Positions 17,169-55,214 of a DNA stretch of 64,000 nt are shown here, piece by piece (the stretch's first letter is position 1; each line of letters begins with the position of its first letter). The position numbers were made by a program, and so were the translations under genes. Below the pieces are notes generated by a model. That model saw only the letters and a list, made by a program, of their open reading frames with translations, ran no database searches and was not told where the DNA came from. Origin of the DNA: a virus; IMG/VR virus record IMGVR_UViG_3300031616_000001, positions 1 to 64,000 of that record; one strand, written 5' to 3'.

Positions 17169-18337
17169 ACCGTAGTCCAGAGCCGAGATCCTCCGTATCG
17201 CCGGGCCGGCCGGTCGAATCCGAGCTTCTCGCCTTCGCTGATCCAGCGCCCGTACGTGCGGGTCACCATCTCGATGTTCTTGTGGCCCAGCAGGTTCGAG
17301 ATGTGGGCCGGGTTCTCGCCCTGGCTCAGCAGGTTCGAAGCAAATGTGTGCCGCAGCTGGTACGGGCTCCGGTACGCGATTCCCGTGCCCTTGTGCGCCT
17401 TTCGCCAGACCTCGGCCAGGCGCCTGTCGTCCCAAGCGCCGTCGTCGCGCGTGCCACGCGGGTTCACTGAGACGCGGTCGCCGGCGAGCAGCGTGTGCGC
17501 GCGCAAGAGATCGATGGCCTCGCGCGCCGCCGGCAGCAGAAGGATCGTGCGCACGCCCGCCGGGGTCTTCGGCCGCGCCTTGTCTTCGCCCGCTGTCGTC
17601 GTCTCCTGGATGTGGATGGTGCTCGCCTCGAGGTCGACGCGCGTCCATCGCAGGCCGATCAGCTCGCCGGTTCGCAGGCCGGTATAGGCCCACAGTTGGA
17701 AGGCGAAGCGCTCGGGCTCGGCGACGTTGGAAAGAAGCTTGACCACCTCCGACTCGCCATAGGGCTGCGCGTCGTAGCCCGTCGACCGCTGTGCCACGGG
17801 GAGCAAGGGCGCGATCTTCAGGCCGAGCAGCGGGTTGCCTTTGATGATCTCGTCGCCGACGGCCTCGTTCAGGACGGCGCGCAGCGGCAGCAACAGGTTG
17901 TTGATCCGCTTCAGGCTGCAGGTCTGCTTGTTGACCCAATCGCGGATGTCGCTTCGCTTCAGTTCGGTGATGCGCTTGTGGCCGAAGGCTGGCACCAGGA
18001 CATTGTCGATCGCCGTCTTGGTCCCGGCGAACGTCGACGGCTCGAACGTCCGCTTGACGCGGTCACGGTAGGCCTCGAGCAAGTCCTTGAGCAGCGCCGT
18101 CTTGCCGACGCCGTGCCCGAAGACGGCGGCGCGCTTTGACATCGGGAATTCCCTGGCGTAGTCGAACTGGGTCTTTTCGATCATCGTGAGGATTGCCGCG
18201 CGCCGGCGCTCGCACCACGCTTCGTTCGCCTTGCTGTGCTCGAGGTCGACCACCTCGCGGCACTGCACGCCCATGAAGCTGAAGGCGATCTGGTAGATCT
18301 GCTTCGTCTTGCGCGTGATCGGCGTGACTCCAATCAC
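17141..18337 (-). CDS. int: Tyrosine integrase with N-terminal arm-binding domain
   Basis: YTGLRTGE (R), PKT (K), YQLRHTFAS, LLGHKN..MV.RTY catalytic motifs; GTG start overlaps the xis stop. Confidence 0.95.
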   Translation of the reverse strand: MIGVTPITRKTKQIYQIAFSFMGVQCREVVDLEHSKANEAWCERRRAAILTMIEKTQFDYAREFPMSKRAAVFGHGVGKTALLKDLLEAYRDRVKRTFEPSTFAGTKTAIDNVLVPAFGHKRITELKRSDIRDWVNKQTCSLKRINNLLLPLRAVLNEAVGDEIIKGNPLLGLKIAPLLPVAQRSTGYDAQPYGESEVVKLLSNVAEPERFAFQLWAYTGLRTGELIGLRWTRVDLEASTIHIQETTTAGEDKARPKTPAGVRTILLLPAAREAIDLLRAHTLLAGDRVSVNPRGTRDDGAWDDRRLAEVWRKAHKGTGIAYRSPYQLRHTFASNLLSQGENPAHISNLLGHKNIEMVTRTYGRWISEGEKLGFDRPARRYGGSRLWTTVACEKDVNS

Positions 18338-18543
18338 TTTCCGTTTCCGTGCTGGAGCGTTGGCTTTACCCCCGCCGCCCAGTCGTCCACCGCTCGTTCG
18401 TTGATCCATAGATCCTTGGCGCCTTCCGGCTTTCTGGCATGCACGCCCTTCAACCAGTACCCGCGGCGGAGACGCGAGTCGACGGCCTCGGCCGTCTCGC
18501 CGGTGCGTCGCAGGTACTCTGGCAAAGGGACCCAATCAGCCAT
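18334..18543 (-). CDS. xis: Excisionase
   Basis: 69 aa directly upstream of int; WVPLPEY...GET.EAV..R...G.W..GVH...LWIN...VDDW. Confidence 0.8.
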   Translation of the reverse strand: MADWVPLPEYLRRTGETAEAVDSRLRRGYWLKGVHARKPEGAKDLWINERAVDDWAAGVKPTLQHGNGK

Positions 18544-36491: not shown

Positions 36492-37049
36492 CTAACTCGC
36501 TGGCGGCTTCGCCGGCAGTTCGACGAAATGGAACGGACCGGCCACGCCGGTGCTGAACGTCACGGCCGCATCCAGACCTGCCTGCAGACGTGCCATCGGA
36601 TCGGCGACGCCGCGCAGTGCGTGCATCGCGCCCATGGCGTAGCTTTCACCGCATCCGACGGCTGTGATGTCGTCGATGCACTCGGCGACCTGGAAGTCGC
36701 TGTGGATCGTGAACAGACTTCCGCGGAAGCCGACGATGAAGACACCGCCTTCATCGCGCCCGTTGACCGTCGTCGCGTATCCGCCGCTTTTCAGCGTTTC
36801 TCGGATGGCCGGCACCAGCGCCTTCACGGCGTACTCGAACGGCTGCTGACCTTCGACGATCGCCGGCGGCGACAGGTTGAACTGCAACAGCTGCAGCATC
36901 CTGAATGAAGACGTGCCTCCGATGATTAGGCCGCCGTTGAGGAACACCTTGCGGTCCTTGCGAATGCGCAGGTCCCAGCCGCCGACGCCGGCGCTGTCGG
37001 CACCGAGAATGATCTTGCCCTCGTGGGCGATACCGACGATGCAAGTCAT
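36492..37049 (-). CDS. HslV/proteasome-like Ntn-hydrolase
   Basis: MTCIVG (N-terminal Thr after Met removal), GADS, RKVF, AVGCGESYAMGAM, TGVAGPF. Confidence 0.75.
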   Translation of the reverse strand: MTCIVGIAHEGKIILGADSAGVGGWDLRIRKDRKVFLNGGLIIGGTSSFRMLQLLQFNLSPPAIVEGQQPFEYAVKALVPAIRETLKSGGYATTVNGRDEGGVFIVGFRGSLFTIHSDFQVAECIDDITAVGCGESYAMGAMHALRGVADPMARLQAGLDAAVTFSTGVAGPFHFVELPAKPPAS

Positions 37050-37429
37050 GCCGTGACTCCTCTGCGCGCGATCTCTTGTTTCAGCGCGTCTATCTCGGAC
37101 CCCGCGAACATGGTCTGCCGCACGGTGCCATCGTTCGCCGCGTACTCGGCTAGCATGCCGGGCACGAAGCCCCACGGCCGCGCAACTAAGTGGGAGGTGC
37201 AAAGCATTTCGATACCGAGGTACGTGAAGCGCATGCCGATGGCGACTGGCGGGTCGAACGCCATCAACGCAGCCACGGCTGCAGGCAGGGGAGTCACCGA
37301 CGGAGGCGGCACCGCGGATGCGGGTGCAGCCGTCCGGCGACGTTCGGCATTGCGCCCGTCGACGCGACCGCGGACGTAGATAAACACGAACGCGACGGCG
37401 ACGTAGAGGACTGCGGTTAGGCCGTCCAT
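37046..37429 (-). CDS. Membrane-anchored hypothetical protein
   Basis: N-terminal TM helix. Confidence 0.5.
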   Translation of the reverse strand: MDGLTAVLYVAVAFVFIYVRGRVDGRNAERRRTAAPASAVPPPSVTPLPAAVAALMAFDPPVAIGMRFTYLGIEMLCTSHLVARPWGFVPGMLAEYAANDGTVRQTMFAGSEIDALKQEIARRGVTA

Positions 37430-37431
37430 GA

Positions 37432-39549
37432 TCAGGCGTCCACGTCGTCGAAGACACTGCGCGTGCCGTCGGCGTTCATGAGGGTGCCGTCCTCGGCATA
37501 GAACTGGCCACCCGTCAGCGGAACAGCGCGCAGCGCTGACTTGAGCGCGGCCATCTCATCGTGCGGCACGATCCATGGCCCCGGCTTGCCGGCTCGCGGC
37601 TTCAGGGCTGCCGACTTCATGACGGCGGCGACCGCGGCCAGCAAGGTTCCCGCCGTCTCCAGGTACTTCTTCATGTCGTAGAAGACCTCTGGCGGCGCAT
37701 CAGCAGCGTGCAGCTCGCCGGTCTGCCGCAGATAGCCGATGTACCCCTCATCTGAAGTGATCGAGATCGCCTGCAGCTGATAGTCGCCGAAGTACCTCTT
37801 GCTGGGGACCGATCCTGGCTCGCCGGCATAGCCAAGCGCTTGGAATCCAAGAGAGAAAACGAAGTCTGGCGTCGGTGGCAAAGCCGACGTGCGGATCTCG
37901 AGCCAGCCGACAGGCTTGTTCTGATCGAAGCCGATCAGGATGGGCACGCGCGTGGTGTCCTCGTTGAGTACGACGGGCAGCGTGCCGTCGCCGGGGCCGC
38001 CGGGCAGCGCGTCGGCGGCATCGGTCAGCGCGCCGTGAACCGTTTGGTCGCTGCCCGTCGCCATGTCGACACCGATGACAATCGTCTCACCCTGGTGCAA
38101 TACGTCAGCCATTTCGGCCGGCACGTATCCGCTCGGCGTATCGGCCAGCGCCAGCGCGGCCTTGACGTCGGCCACCTGCTCAACCAGCGGCGGCGCATCG
38201 CGGCTCGCGACCAGCTCGGCCAGGTAGCTGCGCAGGCTGACCAGCGTCGCGTCCTTCACGGCCTGCGCCGAGCCCACGAGGATCCCGAAGTTGGCGTCGT
38301 CGATTAGCCAGGCCTCGGTCTCTGCGATGATCTTCTCGACGTCGTCGACGTTGGCACCGGTGTAGTAGGGGATGCGGCCGACGTGGGCGATGACCAGCTG
38401 CTGGCGAATGCCGTCGATCTGCTGCATGGCCATTTGCGTGCGCTCGGCTGCCGCGGCTTGCTCGTCGCGAAGGCGCCGGGTTTCGGCGTCGGCGGTCTTC
38501 TGGTCGGTCTCGCGCTGCAGGACGACCCTGTGGAAGTCGTGGAGCTCATGCAGCGCCTTGTCGCGCGCCTTGACAGCCACGGCCGCGAACTCGCCGAGCT
38601 CATCGCCGACGGCAACGTGTTCGATCAACGTGACCAGCTCCAGCAGGCCGGCGGCCGACGACGTGAAGGCTCGGCGCTGGATGCGGTCGATCTCGGCCAC
38701 CAGTTCGCTTGCGGCGTCGCTGCGCGCGCGGCGATCGTCGGCGGCCCGCTGCTCGGCTGCGCGCTGCGCGTCGGCGACCCGACGCTGCTCGACGTCGGCG
38801 GCCTCGCGCTGCCGGCGCTCCTCGGCCTCGCGGGTGATGCGCTCGGCGTTCTCGCGCTCGAGTTGCGCGAGGCGCAGGCGGTTCGCTTCGGCCTCGGCTT
38901 CACGCTGCTCGGAAGACTTTGCAATGCTAAGTAAATCGGCCAACTTCAGGAGCGTCTCGGCCTTTGCGTTGACGGCGTGCGGCTCGAACTCTTCGAAGTC
39001 CGCGCCGACGACGATGCGCGCAACCATGTCGATGCGCTCCTGGATCTGCGCCGACGTCATGCCTACCGCGCGCACGGCGACGTTGGTGATGTCGGCGATG
39101 CGATCGCGGTGGCCGGCCTGGCGTTCGGCCTCGGCGGCGTCGCGCTCTGCCTTCTCACGCACCCTGCGCTGCTCGTCTGCGGTGATCTGCTGGTCGGCCG
39201 AGTTGTAGATCTCCTCGGTGATGCCGACGAATCGTTCGGCCTCGCTCTCCAGCCTGATGATCTTCTCGGCGACGCTGGCCTTCAATTCACGCTTTTTGTC
39301 GGCACAGCGCTTCTCGATGGTCGTCATCGTGCGCTTGAGCATCTGCCGATCCTTGCGGGCGCGGTCGTTGCCTTTGATCGTCGTCAAGTCGTAGGCGATG
39401 CCCTTGAGCTTGAGCATCTCGTTCAGGCCGTGGATGAGGTCCTTGTATTCCTCGAGCTCTGTCGAGACAAGTGCGACCTCGGTGCCCGGCGTTTTGTCGT
39501 CGACGACATCAGGGCCTGCCGTGCCCGCGGATTCTTCATTTTCGCTCAT
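37432..39549 (-). CDS. Long coiled-coil phage protein (DUF1351-like N-terminus)
   Basis: YDLTTIKG...ARKDR..L motif; E/R/A-rich coiled coil; near the recombination genes. Confidence 0.6.
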   Translation of the reverse strand: MSENEESAGTAGPDVVDDKTPGTEVALVSTELEEYKDLIHGLNEMLKLKGIAYDLTTIKGNDRARKDRQMLKRTMTTIEKRCADKKRELKASVAEKIIRLESEAERFVGITEEIYNSADQQITADEQRRVREKAERDAAEAERQAGHRDRIADITNVAVRAVGMTSAQIQERIDMVARIVVGADFEEFEPHAVNAKAETLLKLADLLSIAKSSEQREAEAEANRLRLAQLERENAERITREAEERRQREAADVEQRRVADAQRAAEQRAADDRRARSDAASELVAEIDRIQRRAFTSSAAGLLELVTLIEHVAVGDELGEFAAVAVKARDKALHELHDFHRVVLQRETDQKTADAETRRLRDEQAAAAERTQMAMQQIDGIRQQLVIAHVGRIPYYTGANVDDVEKIIAETEAWLIDDANFGILVGSAQAVKDATLVSLRSYLAELVASRDAPPLVEQVADVKAALALADTPSGYVPAEMADVLHQGETIVIGVDMATGSDQTVHGALTDAADALPGGPGDGTLPVVLNEDTTRVPILIGFDQNKPVGWLEIRTSALPPTPDFVFSLGFQALGYAGEPGSVPSKRYFGDYQLQAISITSDEGYIGYLRQTGELHAADAPPEVFYDMKKYLETAGTLLAAVAAVMKSAALKPRAGKPGPWIVPHDEMAALKSALRAVPLTGGQFYAEDGTLMNADGTRSVFDDVDA

Positions 39550-39565
39550 GGTCACTCCGTTTGAA

Positions 39566-39802
39566 TCAAAGGTCTTGGTCGCGAGCGACGCGCATGCTCT
39601 GCCGATCGCGAGCCACGTCAGCCGCGCAATCCCTGTAGAGCAACTCGCTGCACGGCTTCGGATTCATGTTCTCGTAGCACCAGCACAGGTACTGCGGGTC
39701 CTTCTCGCCGATCTGTGATGGTGTGAGGCCGGGATACTTCCGGCTGCGCGCCATCGGCGCGTGGTCGAGGTCTTCGGCGACTGTCATTTCTAGTTCCATC
39801 AA
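39566..39802 (-). CDS. Small protein with an ExoX-C/DUF3820-like motif
   Basis: KYPG.....I...DPQYL.W. Confidence 0.5.
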   Translation of the reverse strand: MMELEMTVAEDLDHAPMARSRKYPGLTPSQIGEKDPQYLCWCYENMNPKPCSELLYRDCAADVARDRQSMRVARDQDL

Positions 39803-40284
39803 GAGGTAGGGATCTCGCGCTGCAGGCTGACCTGCTGCTTTGGCTTTGGCGGCTCGATCTCTTTCATCATGGCGGAAGCCTGTGAGAGAACGGCTGCACC
39901 AAGACGCATGACGTGCAACTGCTTGCTCTGCTCAATTTGCGTGAGCGTCTCGGCACGTACCATCGTCACACGCCGGATGCTCTTGCCTTGCTTGCGCGTG
40001 CCCTGCTTGAATCCCTTGATGTTCGTGTCCAGTCGCTCGACGCCAGTGAGCGCGCGAAAGCCGATCGTCGGAATTGCCGCGATCTCGATGTTGTGGCTGT
40101 TCAACATCTCTTTTCGCCAGGCGAGCGTGACGCACCGATAGCGGTTCGACTTCGGACTGAGCCCGATCACCGCCTCGATCTGCTCGTGCGTGAAGTCGGT
40201 GCCTTCTGCGATCTCTGGGAACGCAGTGCGCAGCTTCTTGACATCAGGGGCTGTTGGAACGCCCCCAAGAAACAACTTGCTCAT
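39799..40284 (-). CDS. Basic, possibly winged-helix protein; candidate accessory gene of the Cas7-like locus
   Basis: AAGGA RBS directly after repeat unit 4; FTHEQIEAVIG...GFRAL. Confidence 0.6.
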   Translation of the reverse strand: MSKLFLGGVPTAPDVKKLRTAFPEIAEGTDFTHEQIEAVIGLSPKSNRYRCVTLAWRKEMLNSHNIEIAAIPTIGFRALTGVERLDTNIKGFKQGTRKQGKSIRRVTMVRAETLTQIEQSKQLHVMRLGAAVLSQASAMMKEIEPPKPKQQVSLQREIPTS

Positions 40285-40300
40285 CTCGATTCCTTTCAAC

Positions 40301-40371
40301 TATGCGCGTAGCGCCCGTGCCCCGGCTTGCTCTGCAACGCCCGGCCACGCCTTGCCAGACCACAACAAGAC
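40301..40371 (-). repeat. (GGY-NN)n pentamer unit 4 plus terminal hairpin
   Basis: GTCTT GTTGT GGTCT GGCAA GGCGT GGCCG GGCGT TGCAG AGCAA GCCGG GGCAC GGGCG, then hairpin GCGC-TAC-GCGC. Confidence 0.85.
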
Positions 40372-40375
40372 GGGA

Positions 40376-41038
40376 TTAGATCTCTTGAACCTCTGCGGTG
40401 AACATCCCGAACGAGCCCGGCGTCGTGCTGCCAGGTCGCCAATCGCAGAGCCCCTTATATTCGCCGGAGAAGCTCACGATCTCCTGGAGAACTCGCTTAG
40501 TGATCTGCTTGTCCCAGACGCTGATCGTTCCGGTCGCTGACCATCGATCGAAGCGGGGACGAACGCGAATGTGTTTGCTCTTGCCGATCTTGGCGCGCTT
40601 CACGAACAGGCTGAAGCCCATCGCAGCACATGCCACCTTGTGCTCGGCGAAATCTTGGACCTTCATCAGGTCTGCAATCGGCGCCCATAGCAGCGGCTGA
40701 CCGTCGATCAGAAGCGGCCAGTGCATGTCATCGACACGCATGCCACTCTGGGTCTGAGCTTTGAAAGTCTTGTTGCCGCGTCCGCCTGGCACGGGGACCA
40801 TGGCGCCGCCTTCCATCAGGCACCGCATCAGGTTGTCGACCGGAACAGTCACGAACTGTTCATCCTGGTAGCAGCTGCCGAGCCAACGCCACGCCGGTGT
40901 TCTGTCATCGCCAGCCTTGCTCGACTTTTGATTGGCGGCATCATCCTTCCATGCCGACATCCTGTCCGCCCAGTCGATATCATCAGAGTGCATCAGTAGC
41001 GGCGTCTTGCCTGTGATGGTCACTGAGAATTTCTTCAT
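40376..41038 (-). CDS. Solitary Cas7/RAMP-like RNA-binding protein
   Basis: RAMP hallmarks: N-terminal strand FSVTITGKTPLLMH, VPVDNLMRCL (equivalent to iPgsslKG), HIRVRPRF..W, and C-terminal Gly-rich loop GEYKGLCDWRPGSTTPGSFGMF; AGGAGG RBS. Confidence 0.7.
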   Translation of the reverse strand: MKKFSVTITGKTPLLMHSDDIDWADRMSAWKDDAANQKSSKAGDDRTPAWRWLGSCYQDEQFVTVPVDNLMRCLMEGGAMVPVPGGRGNKTFKAQTQSGMRVDDMHWPLLIDGQPLLWAPIADLMKVQDFAEHKVACAAMGFSLFVKRAKIGKSKHIRVRPRFDRWSATGTISVWDKQITKRVLQEIVSFSGEYKGLCDWRPGSTTPGSFGMFTAEVQEI

Positions 41039-41060
41039 CGCTTCCTCCTAGAGTTGATCA

Positions 41061-41380
41061 ATGCGCATTGCGCCCTTGCCACACCACACCTTGCCCGGCC
41101 GTGCCCAGCCCGGGCGAGCCATGCCAAGCCTTGGCTGGAGTGGTGCATTCGCACCGGCAACCATCGCACGCGACGGAAGCCGCTGTGAACAGCCCTTGCC
41201 AAGCCTGACCGCGCCGCGCCCCGCCGTGCCGAGGCTTGCCATGCCATGTCAGGCCACGCCGCGCTAGTGCAACCGCACCGGGATAACGGCAGAACCGCCA
41301 ACCCGCTGCGTTCGCAGCCCCTGCCAGGCCGAGCCGTGCCTTGCACTGCCACGGCGTGCCATGCCGCGCCACACCGAGTG
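41061..41380 (-). repeat. Array of three (GGY-NN)n pentamer units separated by hairpins; candidate guide ncRNAs
   Basis: Phased 5-nt repeats at 41316-41375, 41191-41265 and 41071-41135, each ending GGCA(A/G)GGGC followed by a hairpin. Confidence 0.9.
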
Positions 41381-41396
41381 GCATCATGGAAGTAGT

Positions 41397-41945
41397 TCAA
41401 TGCGGGCTCCTGTGACGCGGCTTGGCCATATACCGAGCGCCTTCGCGCTCGCTCGGCTCGAACTCGAATGTCACGCCGTACTGCACGATCGCGTCGTCGA
41501 TGATCTGATCGGTCCAGATCGCGTACTTCTTCGGGCCCAGCGATTCGCTCGAGACATAGACCTTGTGCGGCGTGCGCTTCTTCGCCACGCGCCGCACGCC
41601 GGTCTTCTTGTCGACCACCTCGCCGCGGCGCATTTCCCAATGGAAGAGAAAGCGTTCGTTGTAGACGAGCTTCCACTGGTCGACGGGCCAGAGTTCAGTT
41701 TTTCCGGTCAGCTGACCCTTGCTGTCGAAGAGCGGAATGCGCACCTGATCGCTGATCTGCTTCAGCACGGCGCCGTGCAGAAACTTGCGCTGCTTGATCG
41801 TGATCGGATCCAGCGCCGGGCCCACCCGCAGCTCTACCTGTTCGCCGTTGTCGAGGAGGCATCGCGCATGAGTCATCGCAGCAATGAACTTCTCACGCGC
41901 TCCGGCTTCGGTCGCGATCACCACGAGGTAGATCTCGTCGTTCAT
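41397..41945 (-). CDS. NinB-like recombination protein
   Basis: TIKQRKFLHG.VL..IS.QV...WK......FL...SSESL...Y..W.DQI...A...GV.F. Confidence 0.6.
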   Translation of the reverse strand: MNDEIYLVVIATEAGAREKFIAAMTHARCLLDNGEQVELRVGPALDPITIKQRKFLHGAVLKQISDQVRIPLFDSKGQLTGKTELWPVDQWKLVYNERFLFHWEMRRGEVVDKKTGVRRVAKKRTPHKVYVSSESLGPKKYAIWTDQIIDDAIVQYGVTFEFEPSEREGARYMAKPRHRSPH

Positions 41946-42235
41946 TCGGCCAGCCTCCGCAGCACGTCGGCCAGCAGATCGAACTCACTGCCGACACCCA
42001 AGGCAAGCATGAGCGGTGGCTTTGCCAGATGCACGGACGCGCGCGTCCCGTTGTGATGCATCTCGCACAGCGGAATGGTGAGGAAGTCGTCGCGCGCAAT
42101 CCGGCCCTCGCGGATGTGGTGTACCTGTGCCCCCGCGTGGCCGTAGCCGAGGCGATGGCAAACGATGCATCCGATTTCAGCGACGCGACCCATGTGGCGC
42201 GAGGCTGCGGCGGTGGCGGCGATCTTGCGGCGCAT
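41942..42235 (-). CDS. Ref/DUF968-like HNH-type nuclease
   Basis: HMGRVAEIGCIVC...QVHHIR...TIPLCEMHH. Confidence 0.75.
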   Translation of the reverse strand: MRRKIAATAAASRHMGRVAEIGCIVCHRLGYGHAGAQVHHIREGRIARDDFLTIPLCEMHHNGTRASVHLAKPPLMLALGVGSEFDLLADVLRRLAE

Positions 42236-42236
42236 C

Positions 42237-43136
42237 TCAGGCCTCTACGCCGAACTTCTTCGCCGCGGCGATGCGCAGTGCGGCGCGATCGTCTTCAGGC
42301 ATGTGAGCGATGCCATCGAGCAGCAGGTCGACCTCGGCCTGGTTGCGGGCCGTCGTGATGCGCTTGAAGAGGCGTTCGAACTCCGTGGGCTTCACGGCGG
42401 ACGGCGCGAACGCTGCGCGAACCGTAAGCGGCGCCGGCAGCGTGCGCCTTGCGATCTTCTGCAGCTTGGCGGGCATGTCTTCGACGGCCGCGAAGGGCGC
42501 GCGCAGGATGCGCTCGTACTCGTCGACCATGGCCTTGAACTCCATGAGATCGCTCTCGAGCTTTTCGATGAAGTCGTCGTCGCGGTAGATCCGCTTGCGC
42601 CAGAGTTGCTTGCCGGCTGGCGCCAGGGCAGGGCAGTACAGGCAGAAGTCCATCCACTGCCGACGGCTGATCCACAGGCCGCCCTGCACTTGATCGATGA
42701 CCATTGACGTGTCGCCGGTCGTCCAGATCTTGCGAAGCTTCAGCGGTGCCAGGAAGCACTTGTACTCAGCAGATCCATCGTCTTCGATGACACCGTCGAG
42801 GCTGCCGCCGAAGACCTCGTCGTCGGTCATGATGAAGCCGACGCGCTGCACGAACAGACCGATGTCGATCTCGTGCTCGTGCCGCGCGTCAGGCTCGAGC
42901 TCATGCCCGCGAGTCATGTACCACGTCTCGTAGTTCTCATCGAGCGGCTCGCCGCTGATGCGCTCGATGGCAATGCGGAACGCTTCGTCCTTGGCATCGC
43001 TGCTGTACTCACCGGCTTCATCACCACGCTTCAGCCGGGCGGACTCGCGCATCAGATGGAAGTTGGAGCACGTCAGCTTGCCGACGCGCGCCTGCTTCCA
43101 TGGCTTGCTGCCCTGCTCGCAGAGAACTTCTTTCAC
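42237..43136 (-). CDS. YqaJ/lambda-exonuclease family recombination nuclease
   Basis: QGSKPW..AR.G.LT.S, G..LEP.AR, GSLDG, EYKC, QVQGGLW motifs. Confidence 0.9.
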   Translation of the reverse strand: MKEVLCEQGSKPWKQARVGKLTCSNFHLMRESARLKRGDEAGEYSSDAKDEAFRIAIERISGEPLDENYETWYMTRGHELEPDARHEHEIDIGLFVQRVGFIMTDDEVFGGSLDGVIEDDGSAEYKCFLAPLKLRKIWTTGDTSMVIDQVQGGLWISRRQWMDFCLYCPALAPAGKQLWRKRIYRDDDFIEKLESDLMEFKAMVDEYERILRAPFAAVEDMPAKLQKIARRTLPAPLTVRAAFAPSAVKPTEFERLFKRITTARNQAEVDLLLDGIAHMPEDDRAALRIAAAKKFGVEA

Positions 43137-44296
43137 TTGGCCGCGCCCTTGCCTTCAGCCGCCTTGATGTCGCGCACGAAGTCGTCGTCGACTTCGCCTG
43201 TGCCGGGATCGGCGGCCTGCGCAGCCGTCTGAGGCGGCGGTGCATCGGCGGTGGTAGCGGCGGCCGGCGCAGGTGCGGACGCCGGAGCGTTGTCGACGGT
43301 GCGCTCGCGGTCGACGGCGACGGCCTTGTCCTTCAGGCGCTGGTGCTCACCGGCGAGCAGCCGGCGATTCTCTTGGCCGGTGCCGGCGAAGAACTTCTGA
43401 TAGGCGGCGACGCCCTTGTCAGCAGCGGTCTCGGCTGCCTTCAGGAGCGCATCGGGAATCTTCGGTCCGACGTCGTCGACCGGGCCCATGTCGCGCGGCG
43501 CGTTCATCTCCTGCAGGTCGTCGACCGTGTGCACGCCGAGCATGCACTGCGGCGCGTACATGCGCTGCCAGAGCTTCTGCGCGAGATAGAAGATCTGCTG
43601 CTGCGGGTTGGTCGTCCACAGCGTCGAGTTGCGCGTCAGCGCCTGCGCCATCAGCACCTCGAGGTACCGCGGCTCCTTCTCACCGGTGAGCGTCGTCCAC
43701 ACCTTGATGCCGAGGCCGACCTCGTCGGCGGGCTTCCAACCGGGCACCTTGTACTTCGCCGGATGGCCGTGATCGTCCTGCTTCTTCTTGCTCTCGCGCT
43801 CTTCGAAGCGGCCGTTGATCTTCGTCCAGTCGCCGAAGTATTCGATGTGCAGCGCCTCCTTGATGGCGCCCATGTTCTTCATCACGGCGCCGATGACCTG
43901 CGACTCGTAGCCGAGCTTGCCATTGATCATGTGCGTCTTCTCCGCGAGGCCGTAGAAGTCCAGGCCCCATCGGTCGGCGCGCATGGCGATCGCCGTGCAG
44001 TCGGCGGCGTTGCCCTTCAGGTGTGCCGGCAGCGTGGCATTGCCCTTCGACACGAACGAGCCGAAGTCCATGTAGGCCTTCATGGCGGCGGCGTTCGTGA
44101 TCTGCGAGAGGCCGAGGCTGGAGTTCTCGGTCATCGCGACGAGCGCCTGCTCGACGCGGGCCATCAGCCGCACGCCATCCGCGGTTGTCGCCAGCTCCGT
44201 CGACGAGCGCAGGTCGCGCAGCAGTTCGGGGATGCCGCCGGCGCTCGGCGCGATGGTCGCGGTGCTGATCTCGGTGCTCGTGTCTTGCGTCGTCAT
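43133..44296 (-). CDS. recT: RecT-family single-strand annealing protein
   Basis: LPAHLKG..ADC.AI.M.A.RW.LD....A.KTH.INGKLGYE.Q...RNSTLW...P.QQ..YLA...W.R.YAP..MLGV. Confidence 0.85.
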   Translation of the reverse strand: MTTQDTSTEISTATIAPSAGGIPELLRDLRSSTELATTADGVRLMARVEQALVAMTENSSLGLSQITNAAAMKAYMDFGSFVSKGNATLPAHLKGNAADCTAIAMRADRWGLDFYGLAEKTHMINGKLGYESQVIGAVMKNMGAIKEALHIEYFGDWTKINGRFEERESKKKQDDHGHPAKYKVPGWKPADEVGLGIKVWTTLTGEKEPRYLEVLMAQALTRNSTLWTTNPQQQIFYLAQKLWQRMYAPQCMLGVHTVDDLQEMNAPRDMGPVDDVGPKIPDALLKAAETAADKGVAAYQKFFAGTGQENRRLLAGEHQRLKDKAVAVDRERTVDNAPASAPAPAAATTADAPPPQTAAQAADPGTGEVDDDFVRDIKAAEGKGAAK

Positions 44297-44327
44297 GTCG
44301 GTCTTTCTTCGGCGTTCGCCGTGGTGG

Positions 44328-46811
44328 TCAGATCTTCTCGAGGAGGGCGAGCTCGACGCGCAGCTCGGCCGCGCGCTTCTCGTGGTGCTTGATGCGCTGC
44401 GGCAGACCATCGAATTCGGCCTTGAGGTGCGCGGTGTCGGACTCGGCGCTGGCGATCAGCTTGCGCACGTAGATGGCCTTGAACCAGGCGACGGTCTTCG
44501 CGGCGCCGAGACGGATCAGGTCGCCGGCGACGAGGTGCGGCGCCGAGCGCGTTGGGGTCAAGACGGCGCTCATTGCGATCTCCCTGTTGCTTCGAGAAGC
44601 ACCGCGCGCATCTCCGTTTCCATCGCCAGGTCATCGCGGCGGTCGCCGCCGAGCGACTTGAAGTCGGGCTGATGCAGGCGCACCAGCGCGGCGACGGCGG
44701 CCCAGTGACAGGAGAAGGCGCCGATCACCTGCGGCTGCCGCATGTTGTTCGCGAGGATCACGCGCTTGCCCGACACGTAGGGCTGCGCTTCGCTGACGCC
44801 GCCGGGCTTCACGCGGTTTGCCTCGCCGTTCTGATGCGCGCGTCGCGGTTGGCGCAGATCACCATGTCGGACGCTTGACCGATCGTGGCGTCGATGGCCT
44901 GGCGGCGGCGCTCGGCATTGGCCTGAGCGGTCTTCAGGCCTTCGGCGCTTCGCGCGCCTGCCAGGTCGGCCTGACGCAGGCGTGATTCCTCGGCGCCCCA
45001 GGCCAGCATCGCGTCGGCGTCCATGTCGCGGTACATCACAGCCGAGACTCGTCCGCGGTGATGCAACGCGCGTCTGGGTCGTGTTGCGTGAAGAGTCCGC
45101 CGTCGACCACGATGACCGCTGCCGACGTCGGCGACTGAGGCGCGAAGGCCGCGCGGGCCGCACGCCTCAAGGCTTCGCAATGCTGATCCTGCGCGCTGGA
45201 ATCGGGGTCGCAGCACCCGCGCCCGTTGGGCATGGGCGTCGAAGAGCGGATGGCGTCGTCGGCGACGAACTGGATGAGGTTGTCCAGCGCGTCCTCGAAG
45301 GCTTCCTCGTGCGGGTTGACTGCCGGCGCCGGCGCGACGGGCAGACCACGTATATCGGCAGGTGTGTGCTGTGCTGTCATGACGTGGTCCCGGTTGCTTT
45401 GGCGATTGCGGCGCGAGCGGCCATCAAGCGCAAACGATCCTCATGGCGCTCCTGCTGCGTGGTGGGCGCACCAGCGCGGCAGTAGGCTTCGTCTAAACCC
45501 TGCAGCGCAGCCAGCAAATCAGGCGCGCCGGCTGCATCAAGTGCGGATTGCGCATCAGCGAGGTGCTCTTGCCCGTAGACCTTCCACGCGTCGTCGAAGT
45601 CAACGTTGCACTCATCTGCGGCTCGCTTGCACAAGGCTCGCGCTGCGGCGACAACCATCGGCGTGTGCTGCGCGTTCATGCGGCGCGCCCGGTAGCCGCG
45701 ACGATGTCAGCAGCCGTGAGCCGCCGGCATTGCCCGATGTGTCGCGGCGGACCCATGGAGTCGCCGTGGCCAGCCCAGCCCCAATACATGCAGGCGTTCG
45801 GGTTGATCTCGGCGATCTGCCGGCGCAGCGCGTTGACTTGCGCGACGCGCCCCAACTCGCTGCGAAGATTCGGCCACTCGGTGATGGCGTTGATCTTGCG
45901 CCAGGTCTCGGCAAACGAGCCGCCGCGGCAGACCGCGAGCAGTTCGCGCTGCAGGTCGTCAACGGTGCGCGGCACCGGCGGTTGCTCCGCGCTCACAGCC
46001 CGAACCCCAGCTTCCAGCAGGCTGACGCCGCCGCGGCGACGCCGATCGCGGCGATCCACATCCACGGGAACCAGGTCGGATCAGGCTCGGCCACGCGCGC
46101 CGGCGCCGGCCGCGATGCCGTGGCGCCGATGTGATGCACGACGGCCGTGTGGAACTCGACGAGCGGCGGCAGCGGCGTGCCGGGCACGGCCGGCCGCAAG
46201 ACGAGGCGTGCGCCGGCCTTCACGACAGATCTCCGCGCTTGACGAAGAGCACGAGCGCCGCGGCCGCCGCGATGCCACCGTTCCAGGCGCTGCCCACGGA
46301 CAGCGCCGCGACGAGGTTGCCGGCGCCGAGCGCGCCGAGCCAGATCCGGTAGGTCATGACTGCTCCTCGAAGTCGAGAGGGATGTCGCAGACGTCCTGTG
46401 TTTCCGCAGCTGGCGGCTCGCGCAGCACCAGCGCCAGCTCGGCGCGCACGCGGTCCTTTGCCACGGACTTGCGGAAGCTCTGGCTCACCGCGATGAGCCG
46501 CACCTGCGCGCCGGGATACAGAAAGGTGGGGGCGACGGTCACGACGCCGCCGGCTTGTTGCCTGCCGCCGGCGCAACGACATGCACCTGGTAGTCCGTGG
46601 GGGCGATGGAATTCCAGACGGCGAAGTCAGGATCCAGACGCTGCTGGGCTTCGCGCAGCGCCGCGCGTTCGGCGCGTCCCGCGCGGACGACGCGCATGTC
46701 TTCGCTGTAGTCGAAGGCCCAGTCGTGCGCCGTGAGTGCGGCGACGTAGGCCGCCTGCTGTTCATCGCTGACGGCCTGCCCGACGGGTACGCCCGGTGTG
46801 GTGTCTGTCAT
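44328..46811 (-). other. First pL-operon genes: about ten small hypothetical ORFs
   Basis: Mostly overlapping minus-strand ORFs 44328-44573, 44570-44812, 44809-45036, 45036-45380, 45377-45679, 45676-45996, 45993-46223, 46220-46357, 46354-46542, 46539-46811. Confidence 0.55.
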
Positions 46812-48894: not shown

Positions 48895-49234
48895 TGTGGC
48901 CGGGGCGATCTGGCAAGCATTGCTTCCAGATTTCTGACTGAGCCTATTCACAAACAACCTCCGTTCCTCATTGGTGAAACCGATGTTGACAAGGATACCC
49001 GGTGACATTAGCAATGCAAAGCACTGAATTTGGGGGGTGTGCTGGGCACGCGCATTGCATCGGCCAGATCGCATCTGCGGTCAGCAGGCCGGCGGCCGAC
49101 CGGTTGCACGAGGGGAAACCCCCTTCGGAGAAGGTCGCCAGGCCGCGCCGCGCGCGCGTACGGTTTACCGATTCGCGGCTCCGCGCTGTTACAAAAAACT
49201 TTGCGTTGCTGAAGTCCATCGGCGGTGGCCGTCG

Positions 49235-51010
49235 ATGATCGAGCCGCAGTTCATCCTCGCGCGGGCCGCCAAACTCGTCATCGATCTGTTCGCCGGCGGC
49301 GGCGGAGCCAGCACTGGCATTGAGCAGGCCATTGGCCGCCACGTCGACATCGCGATCAATCACGACCGCGTCGCCGTCGCCCAGCACCAGGCAAACCACC
49401 CGCAGACCCGTCACCTGGTCACCGACATCTGGGAGGTGGACCCGCTCAGGACCACCGAGGGTCGGCCCGTCGGGTTGCTGTGGGCGAGTCCGGACTGCCG
49501 TCACTTCAGTCCAGCCAAGGGCGGCGCGCCGGTCAGCGATCGCGTGCGCAGCCTAGCGTGGGTGGTGATCAAGTGGGCGACGCATTGCCGGCCCGATGTG
49601 ATCTGCCTCGAGAACATCCCCGAGTTCAAGAACTGGGGGCCGGTCATCGCCGGCCGGCCGTGCCCGGACCGCAAAGGCAAGACCTTCCGCCGCTGGCGCC
49701 TGCAGCTCGCGCGTCTCGGCTACGTCGTCGAGTTCCGCGAACTCCGCGCCTGCGACTACGACACGCCGACGATCCGCAAGCGGCTCTTCATGGTGGCGCG
49801 CTGCGACGGCCTGCCGATCGTCTGGCCGGAGGCGACGAACGGCCCCGGCCTGCGGCCGTTTCGCACGGCCGCCGAGTGCATCGACTTCAGCCTGCCGTGC
49901 CCGAGCATCTTCGAGCGCAAGAAGCCGCTGGCGGCGGCGACGCAGCGGCGCATCGCGCACGGCGTGAAGCGCTACGTCATCGACAATGCGAAGCCGTTCA
50001 TCGTGCCCGTGACGCACCCGCGCGACTCGCGCGTGCACAGTGTCGACGACCCGATGCGCACCGTCACCGCGGCGCCGCGCGGCGAGTTCGCACTCGCGGC
50101 GCCGACGATCGCCCGCATCGGCCAGACCGGCGGCAATGGCAAGTACGCGAACAGCGTCGAGGAGCCGCTGTCAACCATCACCACGAAGGCCGAGCACCTG
50201 CTGGTCGCGCCGGTGATCGTTGAAGCCGCGCACGGCGATGTTTCGCCGACCGGCGTCAAGCGCTGGGGCAAGGGCCACCGCTCGATCGAGGAGCCGGTGC
50301 CGACGATCACGGCCAGCGGCGGCAACACCGCGGTGGTCGCGTCGTTCCTGGCCAAGCACTACGGTGGCCACGAGACGCCGGGCACGCCGCTCGACAAGCC
50401 GATCAGCACGATCACGACGCAGGACCATCACCACCTGGTGGCAGCGCACATCACGAAGTTCCGCACGGACAGCGACGGCGTCGCCGCCGACGTCCCGATG
50501 CCGACTGTCACCGCCAACAGCCATGTCAAGCGCCCGGGCGGCGCGCCGCCGCTTGGCCTCGTGACATCGCATCTCGCGAAGCTGCGCGGCACCAGCAACA
50601 GCGCGGCGACCGACGAGCCATTGCACACCATCAGCGCCGGCGGCTGGCATCACGCCGAAGTCCGCGCCTTCCTGGCGGCGTACTACGGCACCGACCAGGA
50701 TCCGCGGCTCGAGGAGCCGTTGCATACGCTGACGACACGCGACCGTTTCGGCCTCGTCACCGTCAGCGGTATCGACTACGTCATCGTCGACATCGGCATG
50801 CGCATGCTCCAACCTCGCGAGTTGTACCTGGCGCAGGGTTTCGCGCCCGACTACATCATCGACTGGGGCATCGACCCGAAGACCGGTGACCGCATCACGC
50901 TGACAAAGACCGCGCAGGTTCGCCTGGTCGGCAATAGCGTCTGCCCGCCGCTGGCGCGCGCCATCGTCGCCGCGAACTACTCCGACGTCGAGATGCGGAG
51001 GGCGGCTTGA
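49235..51010 (+). CDS. DNA (cytosine-5) methyltransferase
   Basis: DLFAGGGG (motif I), ASPDC (IV), LENI.EF (VI), TIRKRLF (VIII), RML.PREL..AQGF, GNSVCP; repeated P+.TIT target-recognition modules. Confidence 0.95.
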   Translation: MIEPQFILARAAKLVIDLFAGGGGASTGIEQAIGRHVDIAINHDRVAVAQHQANHPQTRHLVTDIWEVDPLRTTEGRPVGLLWASPDCRHFSPAKGGAPVSDRVRSLAWVVIKWATHCRPDVICLENIPEFKNWGPVIAGRPCPDRKGKTFRRWRLQLARLGYVVEFRELRACDYDTPTIRKRLFMVARCDGLPIVWPEATNGPGLRPFRTAAECIDFSLPCPSIFERKKPLAAATQRRIAHGVKRYVIDNAKPFIVPVTHPRDSRVHSVDDPMRTVTAAPRGEFALAAPTIARIGQTGGNGKYANSVEEPLSTITTKAEHLLVAPVIVEAAHGDVSPTGVKRWGKGHRSIEEPVPTITASGGNTAVVASFLAKHYGGHETPGTPLDKPISTITTQDHHHLVAAHITKFRTDSDGVAADVPMPTVTANSHVKRPGGAPPLGLVTSHLAKLRGTSNSAATDEPLHTISAGGWHHAEVRAFLAAYYGTDQDPRLEEPLHTLTTRDRFGLVTVSGIDYVIVDIGMRMLQPRELYLAQGFAPDYIIDWGIDPKTGDRITLTKTAQVRLVGNSVCPPLARAIVAANYSDVEMRRAA

Positions 51011-51940: not shown

Positions 51941-52599
51941 TCGATGCCTGCTCGTGGGACGCGCCAGGCCGGGACCGCTATACGGGGTCGGTGCCGGCGG
52001 CCATCATTGCCTTCGGCCTGCCGCTGGCCACCCAATCCAAGCTGATCGCGGCCTTCGAAGCCCGCGAGTTCGTCGACGCCGTCGTCATCGACCGCGATGC
52101 CATCCGCGGCCGCACCTTCGACTATGCACCGGAGATCTCCGCGATGCACTTCGGCAGCCGCGGGCGGATCTGCGGGACGGTGACGCGCACCGGCTGGAGC
52201 GCTGAGCACGTCGAGACGGCGCTGGTGCTGTGCGCCGACGGCGAGTGCATCGCCTGGCCGGCGGTGTGCGGCAACGTCTTCAGGCTCGCGCGGCGCGAGC
52301 GCGCCGAGAAGCTCGCCGGGCCGCCGGCCGCGGTCCCCGAGACGCCGGGCGATGCCGTGGCCCCGCCCGAGCCGCCTCCTGTTCTCACGCTGACGTCGGC
52401 GCCCGTGCCGCTGGCTGGGCCCGCATATCCGCCGTCGGGCTACGGCGGCCCGCCGGACATCTTCTTTGGGCCGTGCTGCGCGACGCCAGGGGCTCCCGGG
52501 CTTCCGCCGATCACTCCGGCCATCCCGGAGCCGTCGACCTGGGCGCTGTTGATCGCCGGCGGCGCGGCGTTCCTCCTGGCGAGGAGACGGCGGGCGTGA
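51937..52599 (+). CDS. MHFG-family PEP-CTERM protein
   Basis: CSWD.PG, AMHFG...C..V.R..W, P.VC.NV; C-terminal IPEPSTWALLIAGGAAFLLARRRR. Confidence 0.85.
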   Translation: MIDACSWDAPGRDRYTGSVPAAIIAFGLPLATQSKLIAAFEAREFVDAVVIDRDAIRGRTFDYAPEISAMHFGSRGRICGTVTRTGWSAEHVETALVLCADGECIAWPAVCGNVFRLARRERAEKLAGPPAAVPETPGDAVAPPEPPPVLTLTSAPVPLAGPAYPPSGYGGPPDIFFGPCCATPGAPGLPPITPAIPEPSTWALLIAGGAAFLLARRRRA

Positions 52600-55214
52600 A
52601 ATCGTACGAGCAGTTCCTTCGCGACAAGGTGCGCCTCGCCCCTGATGAGGGGTTCGACGTTGCCCTGGACGAGGTGAATCCGCTGCTGAAGATGCACCAG
52701 CGCCTTATGGTGGTCTGGGCAATCCGCGGCGGGCGGCGCGCGATCTTCGCGGCCTTCGGTCTCGGCAAGAGCGTCATCCAACTCGAGATCGTCCGCCTGA
52801 TCCTTGCGCGCATCACCGGCCTCGGCCTGATTGTGATCCCGCTGGGCGTCCTGCAGGAGTTCAAGCGCGACGCCGCCATGCTCGGCATCGTCGTCAAATT
52901 CATCCGCGACATCGAAGACGCGCACGGCGCCGACATCTACCTGACGAACTACGAGACCGTCCGCGACGGCAAACTCGACCCGCAGCGGTTCGCCGTGGCC
53001 AGCCTGGATGAGGCCGCCGTCCTGCGCGGCTTCGGCGGCACCAAGACATTCCGCGAGTTCATGCGCACGTTCGCCGGCGACGGCAAGACGTTGAACGACA
53101 GGACGATCACGGACGGCGTGCGGTATCGCTTCGTGGCGACGGCGTGCCCGAGCCCGAACGAGTACATCGAGTTGCTGGCGTACGCCGCCTACCTCGGCAT
53201 CATGGACGTGTCGGCGGCGAAGACCAGGTTCTTCAAGCGCGACAGCACGAAGGCCGACAAGCTGACGCTGCACGCGCACAAGGAGCGCGAGTTCTGGTTG
53301 TGGGTGTCGTCGTGGGCGATCTTCGTTCAGAAGCCGAGCGACCTCGGCTGCTCGGACGACGGCTACGAACTACCGCCAATGGACGTGCGCTGGCACGAGG
53401 TGGCCAGCGACGTCGCCACCATCGGCCACGAGCCCTGGGGCCAGGCCAAGATGTTCGTCAGCGCCGCCATTGGCGTCGTCGACGCCAGCCGCGAGAAGCG
53501 CGAGAGTCTGCCGCTTCGCATGGCCAAGATGATGGAACTGCGCGCGGAGGATCCGCATGCCCATCGCATCCTCTGGCACGACCTCGAGCGCGAGCGCGAC
53601 GCCATCGAGCGCGCCATCCCGACGGCGGTCAGCGTCTACGGTTCGCAGGACCTGGATGAACGCGAGCAGGCCGTCGTGGACTTCAGCGACGGCCGGTTCC
53701 AGGAGCTCGCCGCGAAGCCCGTGATCGCCGGCAGCGGCTGCAACTTTCAGCGGCACTGCAGCTGGGCAATCTTCCTCGGCATCGGCTTCAAGTTCAGCGA
53801 TTTCATCCAGGCGATTCACCGTATCCAGCGTTTCCTGCAGACGCGGCCGGTGCGCATCGACCTGATCTACACGGAAGCCGAGCGCGAGGTTCGCAGGCAG
53901 CTCGAGCGCAAATGGGAGCAGCACACCATCATGGTCGCCAAGATGACCGAGATCATTCGGGAGTTCGGACTCTCACAGGCCGCGATGGCGCAGTCGCTGA
54001 CGCGCGCCATGAACGTGGAACGCGTGGAAACCGCTGGTCGCAGCTACAAGCTCGTGAACAACGACAGCGTCGACGAGACGCGTCGCATGGCTACCGACAG
54101 CGTCGACCTGATCCTCACGTCGATTCCGTTCTCTTCGCAATACGAATACTCGCCGAGCTACCGCGACCTCGGTCACAGCGACAACAACAAGCACTTCTTC
54201 GAGCACATGGACTTCATCACGCCGAACCTGCTGCGCGTGCTGAAGCCCGGCCGCATCGCGGCGATCCACGTGAAGGATCGCATCGTGCCCAAGGGCATGA
54301 CCGGCCTCGGCTTTCAGACGGCCTACCGATTCCACAGCAAGGTTGCCGACCACTACGAGAAGCACGGCTTCGCCTACCTCGGCATGAAGACGATCGTCAC
54401 CGACGTCGTGCGCGAGAACAACCAGACCTATCGCCTGGGTTGGACGGAGCAGTGCAAGGACGGCACGAAGATGGGCGTCGGCATGCCCGAGTACCTGCTG
54501 CTGTTCCGCAAGCCCGTGACGGACACCGCCGACGGCTACGCCGATACGCCGGTGGTCAAAGCCAAGCCGCTGTGCCTCGACGGCGACGACGACGTGCCGT
54601 TTGACCGCGATCTTCCGATCAAGCCGAACAGCGGCTACTCGCGATCGCGGTGGCAGATCGATGCCCACGGCTTCACGCGGTCATCGGGTGACGGTCTGCT
54701 GCTGCCAGAGGACCTGGCCGGCATGACGCACGCCGAGATGTTCCAGCTGTTCAAACGGCGATCGCTCGAGACCGTCTACAACTTCGAGAACCACGTGCGA
54801 CTCTGCGAGCACCTCGAAGCCGCCGGCAAGCTGCCGGTGACCTTCATGTTGCTGCAGCCGCAGAGCTGGAGCGATGAGGTGTGGACCGACATCACGCGGA
54901 TGCTCACGCTCAACGGCGCGCAGTCCGCGAAGGGCAAGGAGATGCATCTTTGCCCGATGCAGTTCGATCTCGCCGATCGCGCGATCGAGCAATGGTCCAT
55001 GCCTGGCGAGGTGGTGTTCGATCCATTCGCCGGCCTCGGAACCGTCCCGTACCGCGCCGTCCAGAAGGGCCGCTTCGGCCTGGGCTGCGAACTGAGCCCG
55101 TCGTACTACCTCGACAGCCACACCTACTGCCGCGCGGCCGAGCTCGAGCTGAGCATGCCGAGCCTCTTCGATGCCGAAGAGATCGGCGAGACAGCCGACT
55201 CTGCCGCGTCTTGA
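52596..55214 (+). CDS. SNF2-like helicase fused to an N6/N4 DNA methyltransferase
   Basis: FGLGKS (Walker A), LDEA, TACPSPN, QAIHRIQRF; MTase SIPF, H.CPMQ, DPFAGLGT motifs. Confidence 0.9.
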   Translation: MKSYEQFLRDKVRLAPDEGFDVALDEVNPLLKMHQRLMVVWAIRGGRRAIFAAFGLGKSVIQLEIVRLILARITGLGLIVIPLGVLQEFKRDAAMLGIVVKFIRDIEDAHGADIYLTNYETVRDGKLDPQRFAVASLDEAAVLRGFGGTKTFREFMRTFAGDGKTLNDRTITDGVRYRFVATACPSPNEYIELLAYAAYLGIMDVSAAKTRFFKRDSTKADKLTLHAHKEREFWLWVSSWAIFVQKPSDLGCSDDGYELPPMDVRWHEVASDVATIGHEPWGQAKMFVSAAIGVVDASREKRESLPLRMAKMMELRAEDPHAHRILWHDLERERDAIERAIPTAVSVYGSQDLDEREQAVVDFSDGRFQELAAKPVIAGSGCNFQRHCSWAIFLGIGFKFSDFIQAIHRIQRFLQTRPVRIDLIYTEAEREVRRQLERKWEQHTIMVAKMTEIIREFGLSQAAMAQSLTRAMNVERVETAGRSYKLVNNDSVDETRRMATDSVDLILTSIPFSSQYEYSPSYRDLGHSDNNKHFFEHMDFITPNLLRVLKPGRIAAIHVKDRIVPKGMTGLGFQTAYRFHSKVADHYEKHGFAYLGMKTIVTDVVRENNQTYRLGWTEQCKDGTKMGVGMPEYLLLFRKPVTDTADGYADTPVVKAKPLCLDGDDDVPFDRDLPIKPNSGYSRSRWQIDAHGFTRSSGDGLLLPEDLAGMTHAEMFQLFKRRSLETVYNFENHVRLCEHLEAAGKLPVTFMLLQPQSWSDEVWTDITRMLTLNGAQSAKGKEMHLCPMQFDLADRAIEQWSMPGEVVFDPFAGLGTVPYRAVQKGRFGLGCELSPSYYLDSHTYCRAAELELSMPSLFDAEEIGETADSAAS

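Follow-up and report, generated by a model that had tools for sequence, protein, structure and literature searches.

The early recombination operon of a phage recorded in IMG/VR as IMGVR_UViG_3300031616_000001 raises the question of what a gene for a 220-amino-acid RAMP (Cas7-like) protein is doing between non-coding tracts of pentamers, each built of a constant GGY triplet and a variable NN dinucleotide. We analysed positions 1 to 64,000 of this record (hereafter the window, 64,000 nucleotides (nt)). A reading made from the letters alone (the sequence-only reading) had proposed an RNA-guided system without CRISPR and pointed to a resemblance to viral 'VIPR' systems. We conclude, with a probability of roughly 0.92, that the cassette at 39799-41375 on the minus strand is a VIPR (Viral Interference Programmable Repeat) system on a complete 118-kb phage genome. 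Three vrRNA genes, the vipr gene, a fourth vrRNA gene and a vap1-like gene lie on a single strand within the operon (Table 1). This identification rests on anatomy, homology, fold class, contact residues, co-occurrence, tail covariation and guide turnover. Systems of this kind are already in print (three 2026 preprints), and the cassette is a further example rather than a new system.

According to the published model, one Vipr protomer occupies each pentamer and two neighbouring protomers sequester the G, G and Y, leaving the N bases to pair with double-stranded DNA in which each third base is skipped; binding represses transcription of a competing phage or satellite, and vap1 enhances the effect (bioRxiv 10.64898/2026.04.26.720920; bioRxiv 10.64898/2026.04.26.720927). 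A vrRNA is recognised there from at least four YNNGG/GGYNN units in tandem, vrRNAs are often internally degenerate, and all seven VIPR types are described as using GGY/NN or a related consensus (bioRxiv 10.64898/2026.04.26.720920). The mechanism suggested by the sequence-only reading, in which a RAMP protein would polymerise along the GGY triplets and present the NN string as a non-contiguous guide, is exactly that of the published accounts.

The first line of evidence comes from the protein. The translation of vipr contains each of the elements that had been singled out in it, namely FSVTITGKTPLLMH, the motif VPVDNLMRCL and GLCDWRPGSTTPGSFGMF. Residues 1-214 aligned with residues 1-186 of PDB chain 36pp_D, 'SUSP1 Vipr protein' (phmmer, E=1.8e-9), and the open reading frame (ORF) matched the SUSP1 coding sequence YP_009199429.1 with 27% identity (tblastn, E=1e-11), the accession given for SUSP1 Vipr in bioRxiv 10.64898/2026.10.15.759431. 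SUSP1 was one of 122 phage records matched by tblastn, all of them below 60% identity. No family in Pfam, NCBIfam or PADLOC matched the ORF, and PHROGs returned only phrog_4652, annotated as 'unknown function'. An AF2 model (predicted local distance difference test (pLDDT) 81) had 12 Foldseek matches at E<=0.001, all within Csm or type VII complexes, the nearest solved folds being Csm3, Cmr4 and type VII Cas7.

The residues expected to contact the guide RNA are also retained. Cryo-electron microscopy (cryo-EM) of SUSP1 Vipr assigned the holding of GGY to H17, R138, D177, W178 and R179 (bioRxiv 10.64898/2026.04.26.720927). These align to H17, R160, D199, W200 and R201 of the window's protein, and each is invariant in 31/31 sequences. 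The suggested resemblance to VIPR was therefore well placed, as the match to the published systems extends over sequence, fold class and GGY-contact residues. Separately, the Y3-pocket residue given as 'T175' in the SUSP1 cryo-EM preprint is V175 in the translation of the GenBank coding sequence (L084:2501-3088 in our set of loci); the mismatch comes either from an error in numbering or typing or from a construct that differs from the deposited sequence.

The second line of evidence is the phasing of the tracts. Each 45-nt frame on both strands was scored for in-phase GGY out of nine pentamers. Only four clusters in the window reached at least 6/9, all on the minus strand, with maxima of 7, 8, 8 and 6; the plus strand never rose above 4/9. 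Mononucleotide shuffling of the window, repeated 20 times, gave maxima of 4-6, with 6 reached in two and 7 in none, and a scan of the rest of the 118,179-nt record found no additional GGY tract. The tracts vr1-vr3 are far beyond chance. The four in-phase clusters are the GGY-NN tracts that had been seen on both sides of the gene, three upstream and one downstream. Degenerate units number one or two in each of vr1-vr3 and three, placed consecutively, in vr4. An interpretation of the tracts as coding sequence was rejected because a 5-nt period is incompatible with codons; the overlapping ORFs are GC-rich artefacts. Tandem Repeats Finder at default settings reported nothing at the pentamer tracts (41061-41380), and Rfam 15 contains no family for them, its single match being at chance level on the plus strand (E=0.96). 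As both are blind to the tracts, standard repeat and RNA annotation pipelines would overlook vrRNA genes.

Each tract is followed by a tail of common design. All four tracts end in GGCA(A/G/C), followed by GGG and a short hairpin with a stem that varies from unit to unit. Upstream of vipr the stems are ordered by position, with CTGCG/CGCAG in the distal tail, CTGT/ACAG in the middle tail and GCGC/GCGC in the proximal tail, and this order of tail classes is identical in a clade of homologue loci (L015-L030) whose Vipr is only ~62% identical. The distal and middle tails are multi-hairpin spacers of 60-65 nt (z about -2.8), that of vrRNA 1 having a minimum free energy (MFE) of -32.7 kcal/mol (z -2.86 against shuffles); the final 5 nt of the vrRNA 2 tail may instead belong to vrRNA 3 as its degenerate first unit. 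The gene-adjacent tails are 32-37 nt long and run directly into a ribosome-binding site. The energy of the vrRNA 3 tail is no better than that of shuffles (z 0.46), and its support is covariation across loci.

The association between gene and tracts was then examined in relatives. The Vipr family comprises 1828 proteins at E<=0.001 among 90% clusters, the nearest of them 90-76% identical to the window's protein, and 780 representatives at 50% identity. We compared 83 homologue loci, 71 from IMG/VR and 12 from genomes (mostly metagenome-assembled Burkholderiales, Steroidobacteraceae, Acidobacteriota, Nitrospira and others); 76 of the loci had a full-length match. The sequence-only reading had asked whether homologues are likewise flanked by 5-nt-periodic tracts, and they are: a same-strand GGY-NN tract lay within 700 nt in 73/76 full-length loci, and all 228 tracts near the gene had its orientation, with 0 on the opposite strand. 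Tracts were upstream only in 21 of these 73 loci, downstream only in 16 and on both sides in 36, and one lay directly past the vipr stop in 52/76. An upstream tract was present in 57/76 loci, at a median distance from its last pentamer to the vipr start of 35 nt, compared with 37 nt in the window; this distance was at most 45 nt in 43/57, indicating that a guide tail and the ribosome-binding site are routinely adjacent.

The tracts of the relatives have the same build. The 229 unique tracts had a median of 13 units (9-16 units in 151), and GGC or GGT filled 2853/3140 units (91%). GGG directly followed 186/284 tracts, and 150/219 unique tails had a hairpin with a stem of 4 bp or longer that begins 2-4 nt past the final unit, against 43 +/- 5 (maximum 57) in 200 shuffles. 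These hairpins use 33 different stem arms across loci, and their retention despite the different arms indicates compensatory change in the tails. Guide turnover was examined in 25 of the 83 loci that had been chosen as near-identical; they form a sister clade with Vipr ~62% identical to that of the window. Among 73 locus pairs with Vipr at least 95% identical, the same guide set was found in only 7, and in the pair L015 and L018 the Vipr proteins were 99.1% identical, with 0 guides and 4/4 tails in common. The sister clade displays constant GGY and tails with hypervariable NN, as the discovery paper describes (bioRxiv 10.64898/2026.04.26.720920).

Several individual loci depart from this pattern. 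Three had no tract by our criterion, namely L064, L079 and L006, the last being a short contig. In L064, the interval separating vipr from vap (L064:3658-4250) contains degenerate five-base repeats, mostly ..GG, with recurring tail-like hairpins, which may represent the alternative NNNGG-type consensus mentioned in bioRxiv 10.64898/2026.04.26.720920. The sole opposite-strand tract, with 9/9 GGY, lies at L012:277-351 just upstream of a 24-residue N-terminal Vipr match and could be a rearranged or solo vrRNA. Second long arrays occur beyond vap, ~1.3-2 kb downstream of vipr, in L010, L043, L072 and L078 (among them the seven tracts of L072:4372-5031 and the four of L043:4668-5083), and array size varies widely in the clade.

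The description of the RAMP gene as 'solitary' did not survive this comparison. A vap homologue was adjacent to vipr in 74/83 loci (tblastn). The NinB-like, Ref-like, 78-residue and 707-residue neighbours were found in 0/83, and the YqaJ exonuclease was found in 17/83. Because vap recurs and the other neighbours mostly do not, the mobile unit is vipr, vap and the tracts. Profile comparison of vap with the SUSP1 gene directly after vipr gave a probability of 94.6% (hhalign, E=6.4e-8, 120 columns). We take that gene to be vap1 because it fits the contiguous 'vipr-vap1' segment of 1,114 bp described for SUSP1 (bioRxiv 10.64898/2026.10.15.759431). The vap model (pLDDT 90.4) has the order H-E-H-H-E-E followed by two long helices. 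Its Foldseek matches were weak (best E=8.3e-3, none at E<=0.001) and mostly to winged-helix DNA-binding domains, and the protein is thus predicted to be a winged helix with two long helices; type II vap proteins are described as predicted DNA binders (bioRxiv 10.64898/2026.04.26.720920). By sequence, vap had no solved relative, its sole hit being a chance-level one to a VopV chain (E=2.2), and no Pfam family; an alignment of 32 homologues gave only three single-member chance matches. The homology to vap1 and the arrays on both sides suggest that the system is probably type II-like, the formal type depending on the published Vipr tree.

By homology with SUSP1, from which transcription, processing, binding, the skip rule in the window's clade and the nature of the target are projected, the cassette would work as follows. 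The tracts would be transcribed and cut into RNAs of ~70-125 nt, each consisting of a guide tract and a 3' tail. One Vipr protomer would load per pentamer to give a helical filament, in which the GGY bases would be flipped out and held by H17, R160, D199, W200 and R201. The free NN dinucleotides would pair with double-stranded DNA of the form NNx repeated, one base being skipped per unit. Binding would silence transcription of a competing mobile element, with the winged-helix Vap assisting.

A number of observations weigh against identifying the cassette as a VIPR system and must be set beside those above. At the level of the proteins, Foldseek TM-scores were modest (0.37-0.46), identity to SUSP1 Vipr is only 27%, and BLASTP of vap against SUSP1 vap1 gave nothing significant, the link between the two being one profile comparison. 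SUSP1 K33, described as a backbone contact at the skipped target base (bioRxiv 10.64898/2026.04.26.720927), aligns to D33, which is D in 27/31 sequences; the region is poorly aligned, with a pLDDT of about 55, and the nearby K31 is nearly invariant among relatives. At the level of the RNAs, the vr3 and vr4 tails are simple hairpins that fold no better than shuffles, and unlike the pseudoknot tail described for the SUSP1 clade, the window's tails are short hairpins or multi-hairpin spacers. The tract vr4 by itself (6/9) is within reach of chance; we accepted it because of its position, strand and tail and because homologue loci so often have a tract past the vipr stop. Finally, the sequencing runs listed for this DNA include no RNA run, the two listed being DNA, of which the only one that covers it almost completely is labelled 'root metagenome' and may itself be where the record came from; a scan of the minus strand from 39500 to 42300 turned up neither a sigma-70-like promoter nor an intrinsic terminator; and there was no natural target in the DNA scanned (the phage's own 118 kb and 85 loci).

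The target scans were performed as follows. With a 1-nt skip, the four guides matched their own 118-kb genome at best at 15/22, 17/26, 15/22 and 14/18 positions (68%, 65%, 68% and 78%), none reaching 80%; across skips 0-3, nothing exceeded shuffled-order controls except, at skip 3, the hits of the guides to their own genes. Against the 85 loci (476,905 nt) the four guides gave no 1-nt-skip match of at least 80% and did not rise above controls. None of 179 clade guides reached 80% at skip 1 on the genome of the window's phage, and 170 clade guides compared with all the DNA analysed gave 2 (skip 1), 3 (skip 0) and 4 (skip 2) matches of at least 80%, without enrichment. The discovery paper, bioRxiv 10.64898/2026.04.26.720920, likewise reports no self-targeting in its VIPR systems. 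As regards expression, the window's tracts show neither promoter- nor terminator-like sites of their own and are therefore probably released by cleavage of the operon transcript.

Missing targets and promoter-like sites, together with a fourth tract that holds 6/9 GGY and three consecutive degenerate units, and with the one or two degenerate units in each of vr1-vr3, could also be explained if the cassette were derived from VIPR but no longer worked as a guide system, its decaying or domesticated remains keeping the tracts only as structured spacers of the operon. We consider this very improbable. The vipr and vap ORFs are both intact, all five GGY-contact residues are kept, and vr1-vr3 retain 9-11 true GGY units; internal degeneracy is frequent in vrRNAs according to bioRxiv 10.64898/2026.04.26.720920, and the failure to find a target is accounted for by how little DNA was scanned.

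Even less probable, by a small margin of judgement, is that the system functions but that its filament targets RNA, in the manner of type III Csm3/Cmr4 backbones, or skips other than one base, so that the clade differs from SUSP1. Such a departure would be in keeping with the nearest solved folds, the Csm3, Cmr4 and type VII Cas7 proteins, being RNA-targeting, with the apparent lack of conservation of K33, with two insertions relative to SUSP1 Vipr (residues about 82-90 and 131-143) and with guide scans that gave no enrichment at skip 1. The GGY pocket residues and the 5-nt unit are nevertheless those of SUSP1, a GGY/NN or related consensus is described as common to all seven VIPR types (bioRxiv 10.64898/2026.04.26.720920), and vap, the vap1 homologue beside it, is predicted to be a winged-helix DNA binder. 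A role for the tracts at the level of DNA, as iterons bound by protein or as REP-like repeats with no functional link to the RAMP gene, has next to nothing in its favour, the lack of a listed RNA run being its only and unspecific support, against same-strand linkage to vipr in 73/76 loci with 0 opposite-strand, compensatory changes in the tail hairpins, NN turnover with constant GGY and tails, and the finding in the reference system that the tracts are Vipr-bound RNAs (bioRxiv 10.64898/2026.04.26.720920). Thus, an RNA-guided VIPR system directed at DNA remains the best account of the cassette.

The arrangement of this VIPR cassette invites a further suggestion, which we regard as unlikely although worth stating. 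In this large clade of soil and freshwater, the guides may not be genes of their own but parts of the early polycistronic message, vipr and vap each having directly before it a vrRNA with a 4-bp tail hairpin that stops a few bases short of the ribosome-binding site. Filament assembly or cutting of the 3' end could in that case link the maturation of the guides to how vipr and vap are translated, in an autoregulatory loop, with the three tail classes possibly acting as distinct processing or loading signals.

The virus record that carries the cassette is 118,179 nt long, has direct terminal repeats, a completeness estimate of 100% and a GC content of 64%, and also encodes a tape measure protein, tail proteins and an integrase (PHROGs profile matches). 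The position in the early recombination operon stood as first read; the NinB neighbour named there is a weak assignment (phrog_72, E=0.0057). On the minus strand, the NinB-like ORF is followed by a 358-nt non-coding stretch, the 220-residue ORF, a 76-nt gap and the 161-residue ORF, with a 78-residue ORF and then a 707-residue coiled-coil ORF downstream. A sister phage without the cassette was sought by IMG/VR scans using the NinB-like protein and RecT as queries, and no relative was found.

Table 1. Components of the VIPR cassette and upstream genes of the early recombination operon (positions in the window)
Feature	Position	Strand	Remarks
vrRNA 1 guide tract (vr1)	41321..41375	-	11 GGYNN units, 9 true GGY; best 7/9 in phase
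vrRNA 1 tail/spacer	41261..41320	-	GGG, 5-6 bp hairpin (GCTGC/GCAGC), further hairpins, the last a GTGC-loop-GCAC stem
vrRNA 2 guide tract (vr2)	41196..41260	-	13 units, 11 true GGY; best 8/9 in phase
vrRNA 2 tail/spacer	41131..41195	-	plan as vrRNA 1 tail; MFE -30.3 kcal/mol, z -2.69
vrRNA 3 guide tract (vr3)	41076..41130	-	11 units, 10 true GGY; best 8/9 in phase
vrRNA 3 short tail	41039..41075	-	GGG and 4-bp hairpin, then AGGAGG ribosome-binding site of vipr
vipr, 220-residue minimal RAMP (Cas7-like) protein	40376..41038	-	
vrRNA 4 guide tract (vr4), between vipr and vap	40317..40361	-	9 units, 6 true GGY
vrRNA 4 short tail	40285..40316	-	GGG and 4-bp hairpin, then vap ribosome-binding site; z -0.20
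vap, 161-residue accessory protein	39799..40284	-	counted from ATG at 40284; remote homologue of SUSP1 vap1
NinB-like ORF	41397-41945	-	weak match, phrog_72, E=0.0057
Ref-like, RecA-dependent nuclease	41942-42235	-	early recombination operon
YqaJ-type exonuclease	42237-43136	-	early recombination operon
RecT	43133-44410	-	early recombination operon

Cas1 (PF01867) and Cas2 (PF09827) had no match in the 118-kb record, with control genomes positive; Tandem Repeats Finder detected no CRISPR-like array in the window; and neither the Vipr nor the vap ORF matched a Cas family in Pfam, NCBIfam or PADLOC. The statement that cas genes and arrays are missing thus holds for Cas1 and Cas2 across the record and for the array in the window, cas3, cas5, cas6, cas8 and cas10 not having been searched one by one. 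With no array and no cas1 or cas2, a CRISPR-Cas remnant was rejected as an explanation of the locus.

Other genes of the window deserve a brief mention. The integrase is of the tyrosine type (17141-18535, minus strand; phrog_1, E=1.9e-54), a noteworthy feature in a 118-kb genome with terminal repeats. A large DNA methyltransferase is encoded at 49037-51010 (plus strand; phrog_116, E=6e-93), and a 994-residue helicase, with weaker matches to DNA-methyltransferase families too, at 52230-55214 (plus strand; phrog_16, E=1.8e-113). Directly downstream of the 707-residue coiled-coil gene lies an ORF (36492-37457, minus strand) with MTCIVGIAHEGKIILGADSAGVGG, which we take to resemble an N-terminal-nucleophile peptidase of the proteasome/HslV type.

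VIPR systems are newly described programmable RNA-guided DNA binders that have been proposed to be older than CRISPR. The present locus leaves their known mechanism unchanged. It is a clean natural example and points to a very large uncharacterised clade without a Pfam, NCBIfam or PADLOC model. With simpler hairpin tails and a guide between vipr and vap, this clade may prove a source of compact variants for engineering and of data from which the rules for tails and processing could be learned.

The closest described counterpart is the type II VIPR system of SUSP1 (Vipr YP_009199429.1, vap1 and four vrRNAs). As far as the preprints describe it, the SUSP1 system agrees with that of the window in several respects: the GGY-contact residues of the minimal RAMP protein are identical, tracts of 9-13 GGYNN units, each with its 3' tail, flank the protein genes on either side, and a vap1-type gene is adjacent. 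Both are also borne by phages, lack Cas1, Cas2 and a CRISPR array, and show no self-targeting. The window's system differs in the low protein identity (27%), the two insertions and the apparent lack of conservation of K33, in having a vrRNA between vipr and vap, which in SUSP1 are 2 nt apart, and in its carrier, a phage of 118 kb and 64% GC that has terminal repeats and encodes an integrase. A second comparison is offered by Pseudomonas phage LESphi2 (OQ594955.1), which has a full-length Vipr match (tblastn, E=1e-8, 27.9% identity) adjoining its cI/cro region. It resembles the window in lying in a temperate-phage early region, in having a 163-residue gene directly downstream and in keeping H17 and the R, D and R of the pocket; it differs in that Y replaces W200 and in that BLASTP of the window's vap against the downstream gene gave nothing significant. 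The LESphi2 homologue is presumably related to the discovery paper's clade of P. fulva prophages. More distant are the Cas7 proteins of class 1 CRISPR-Cas systems (Csm3, Cmr4 and type VII Cas7), from which the window's cassette is set apart by the lack of an array, Cas1 and Cas2 and by a Vipr ORF that matches none of the Cas families searched at the sequence level. The two also differ in their register on RNA, as VIPR is described as advancing in steps of 5 nt, with three bases sequestered and two presented, compared with the 6-nt step and single flipped base of Cas7 (bioRxiv 10.64898/2026.04.26.720920).

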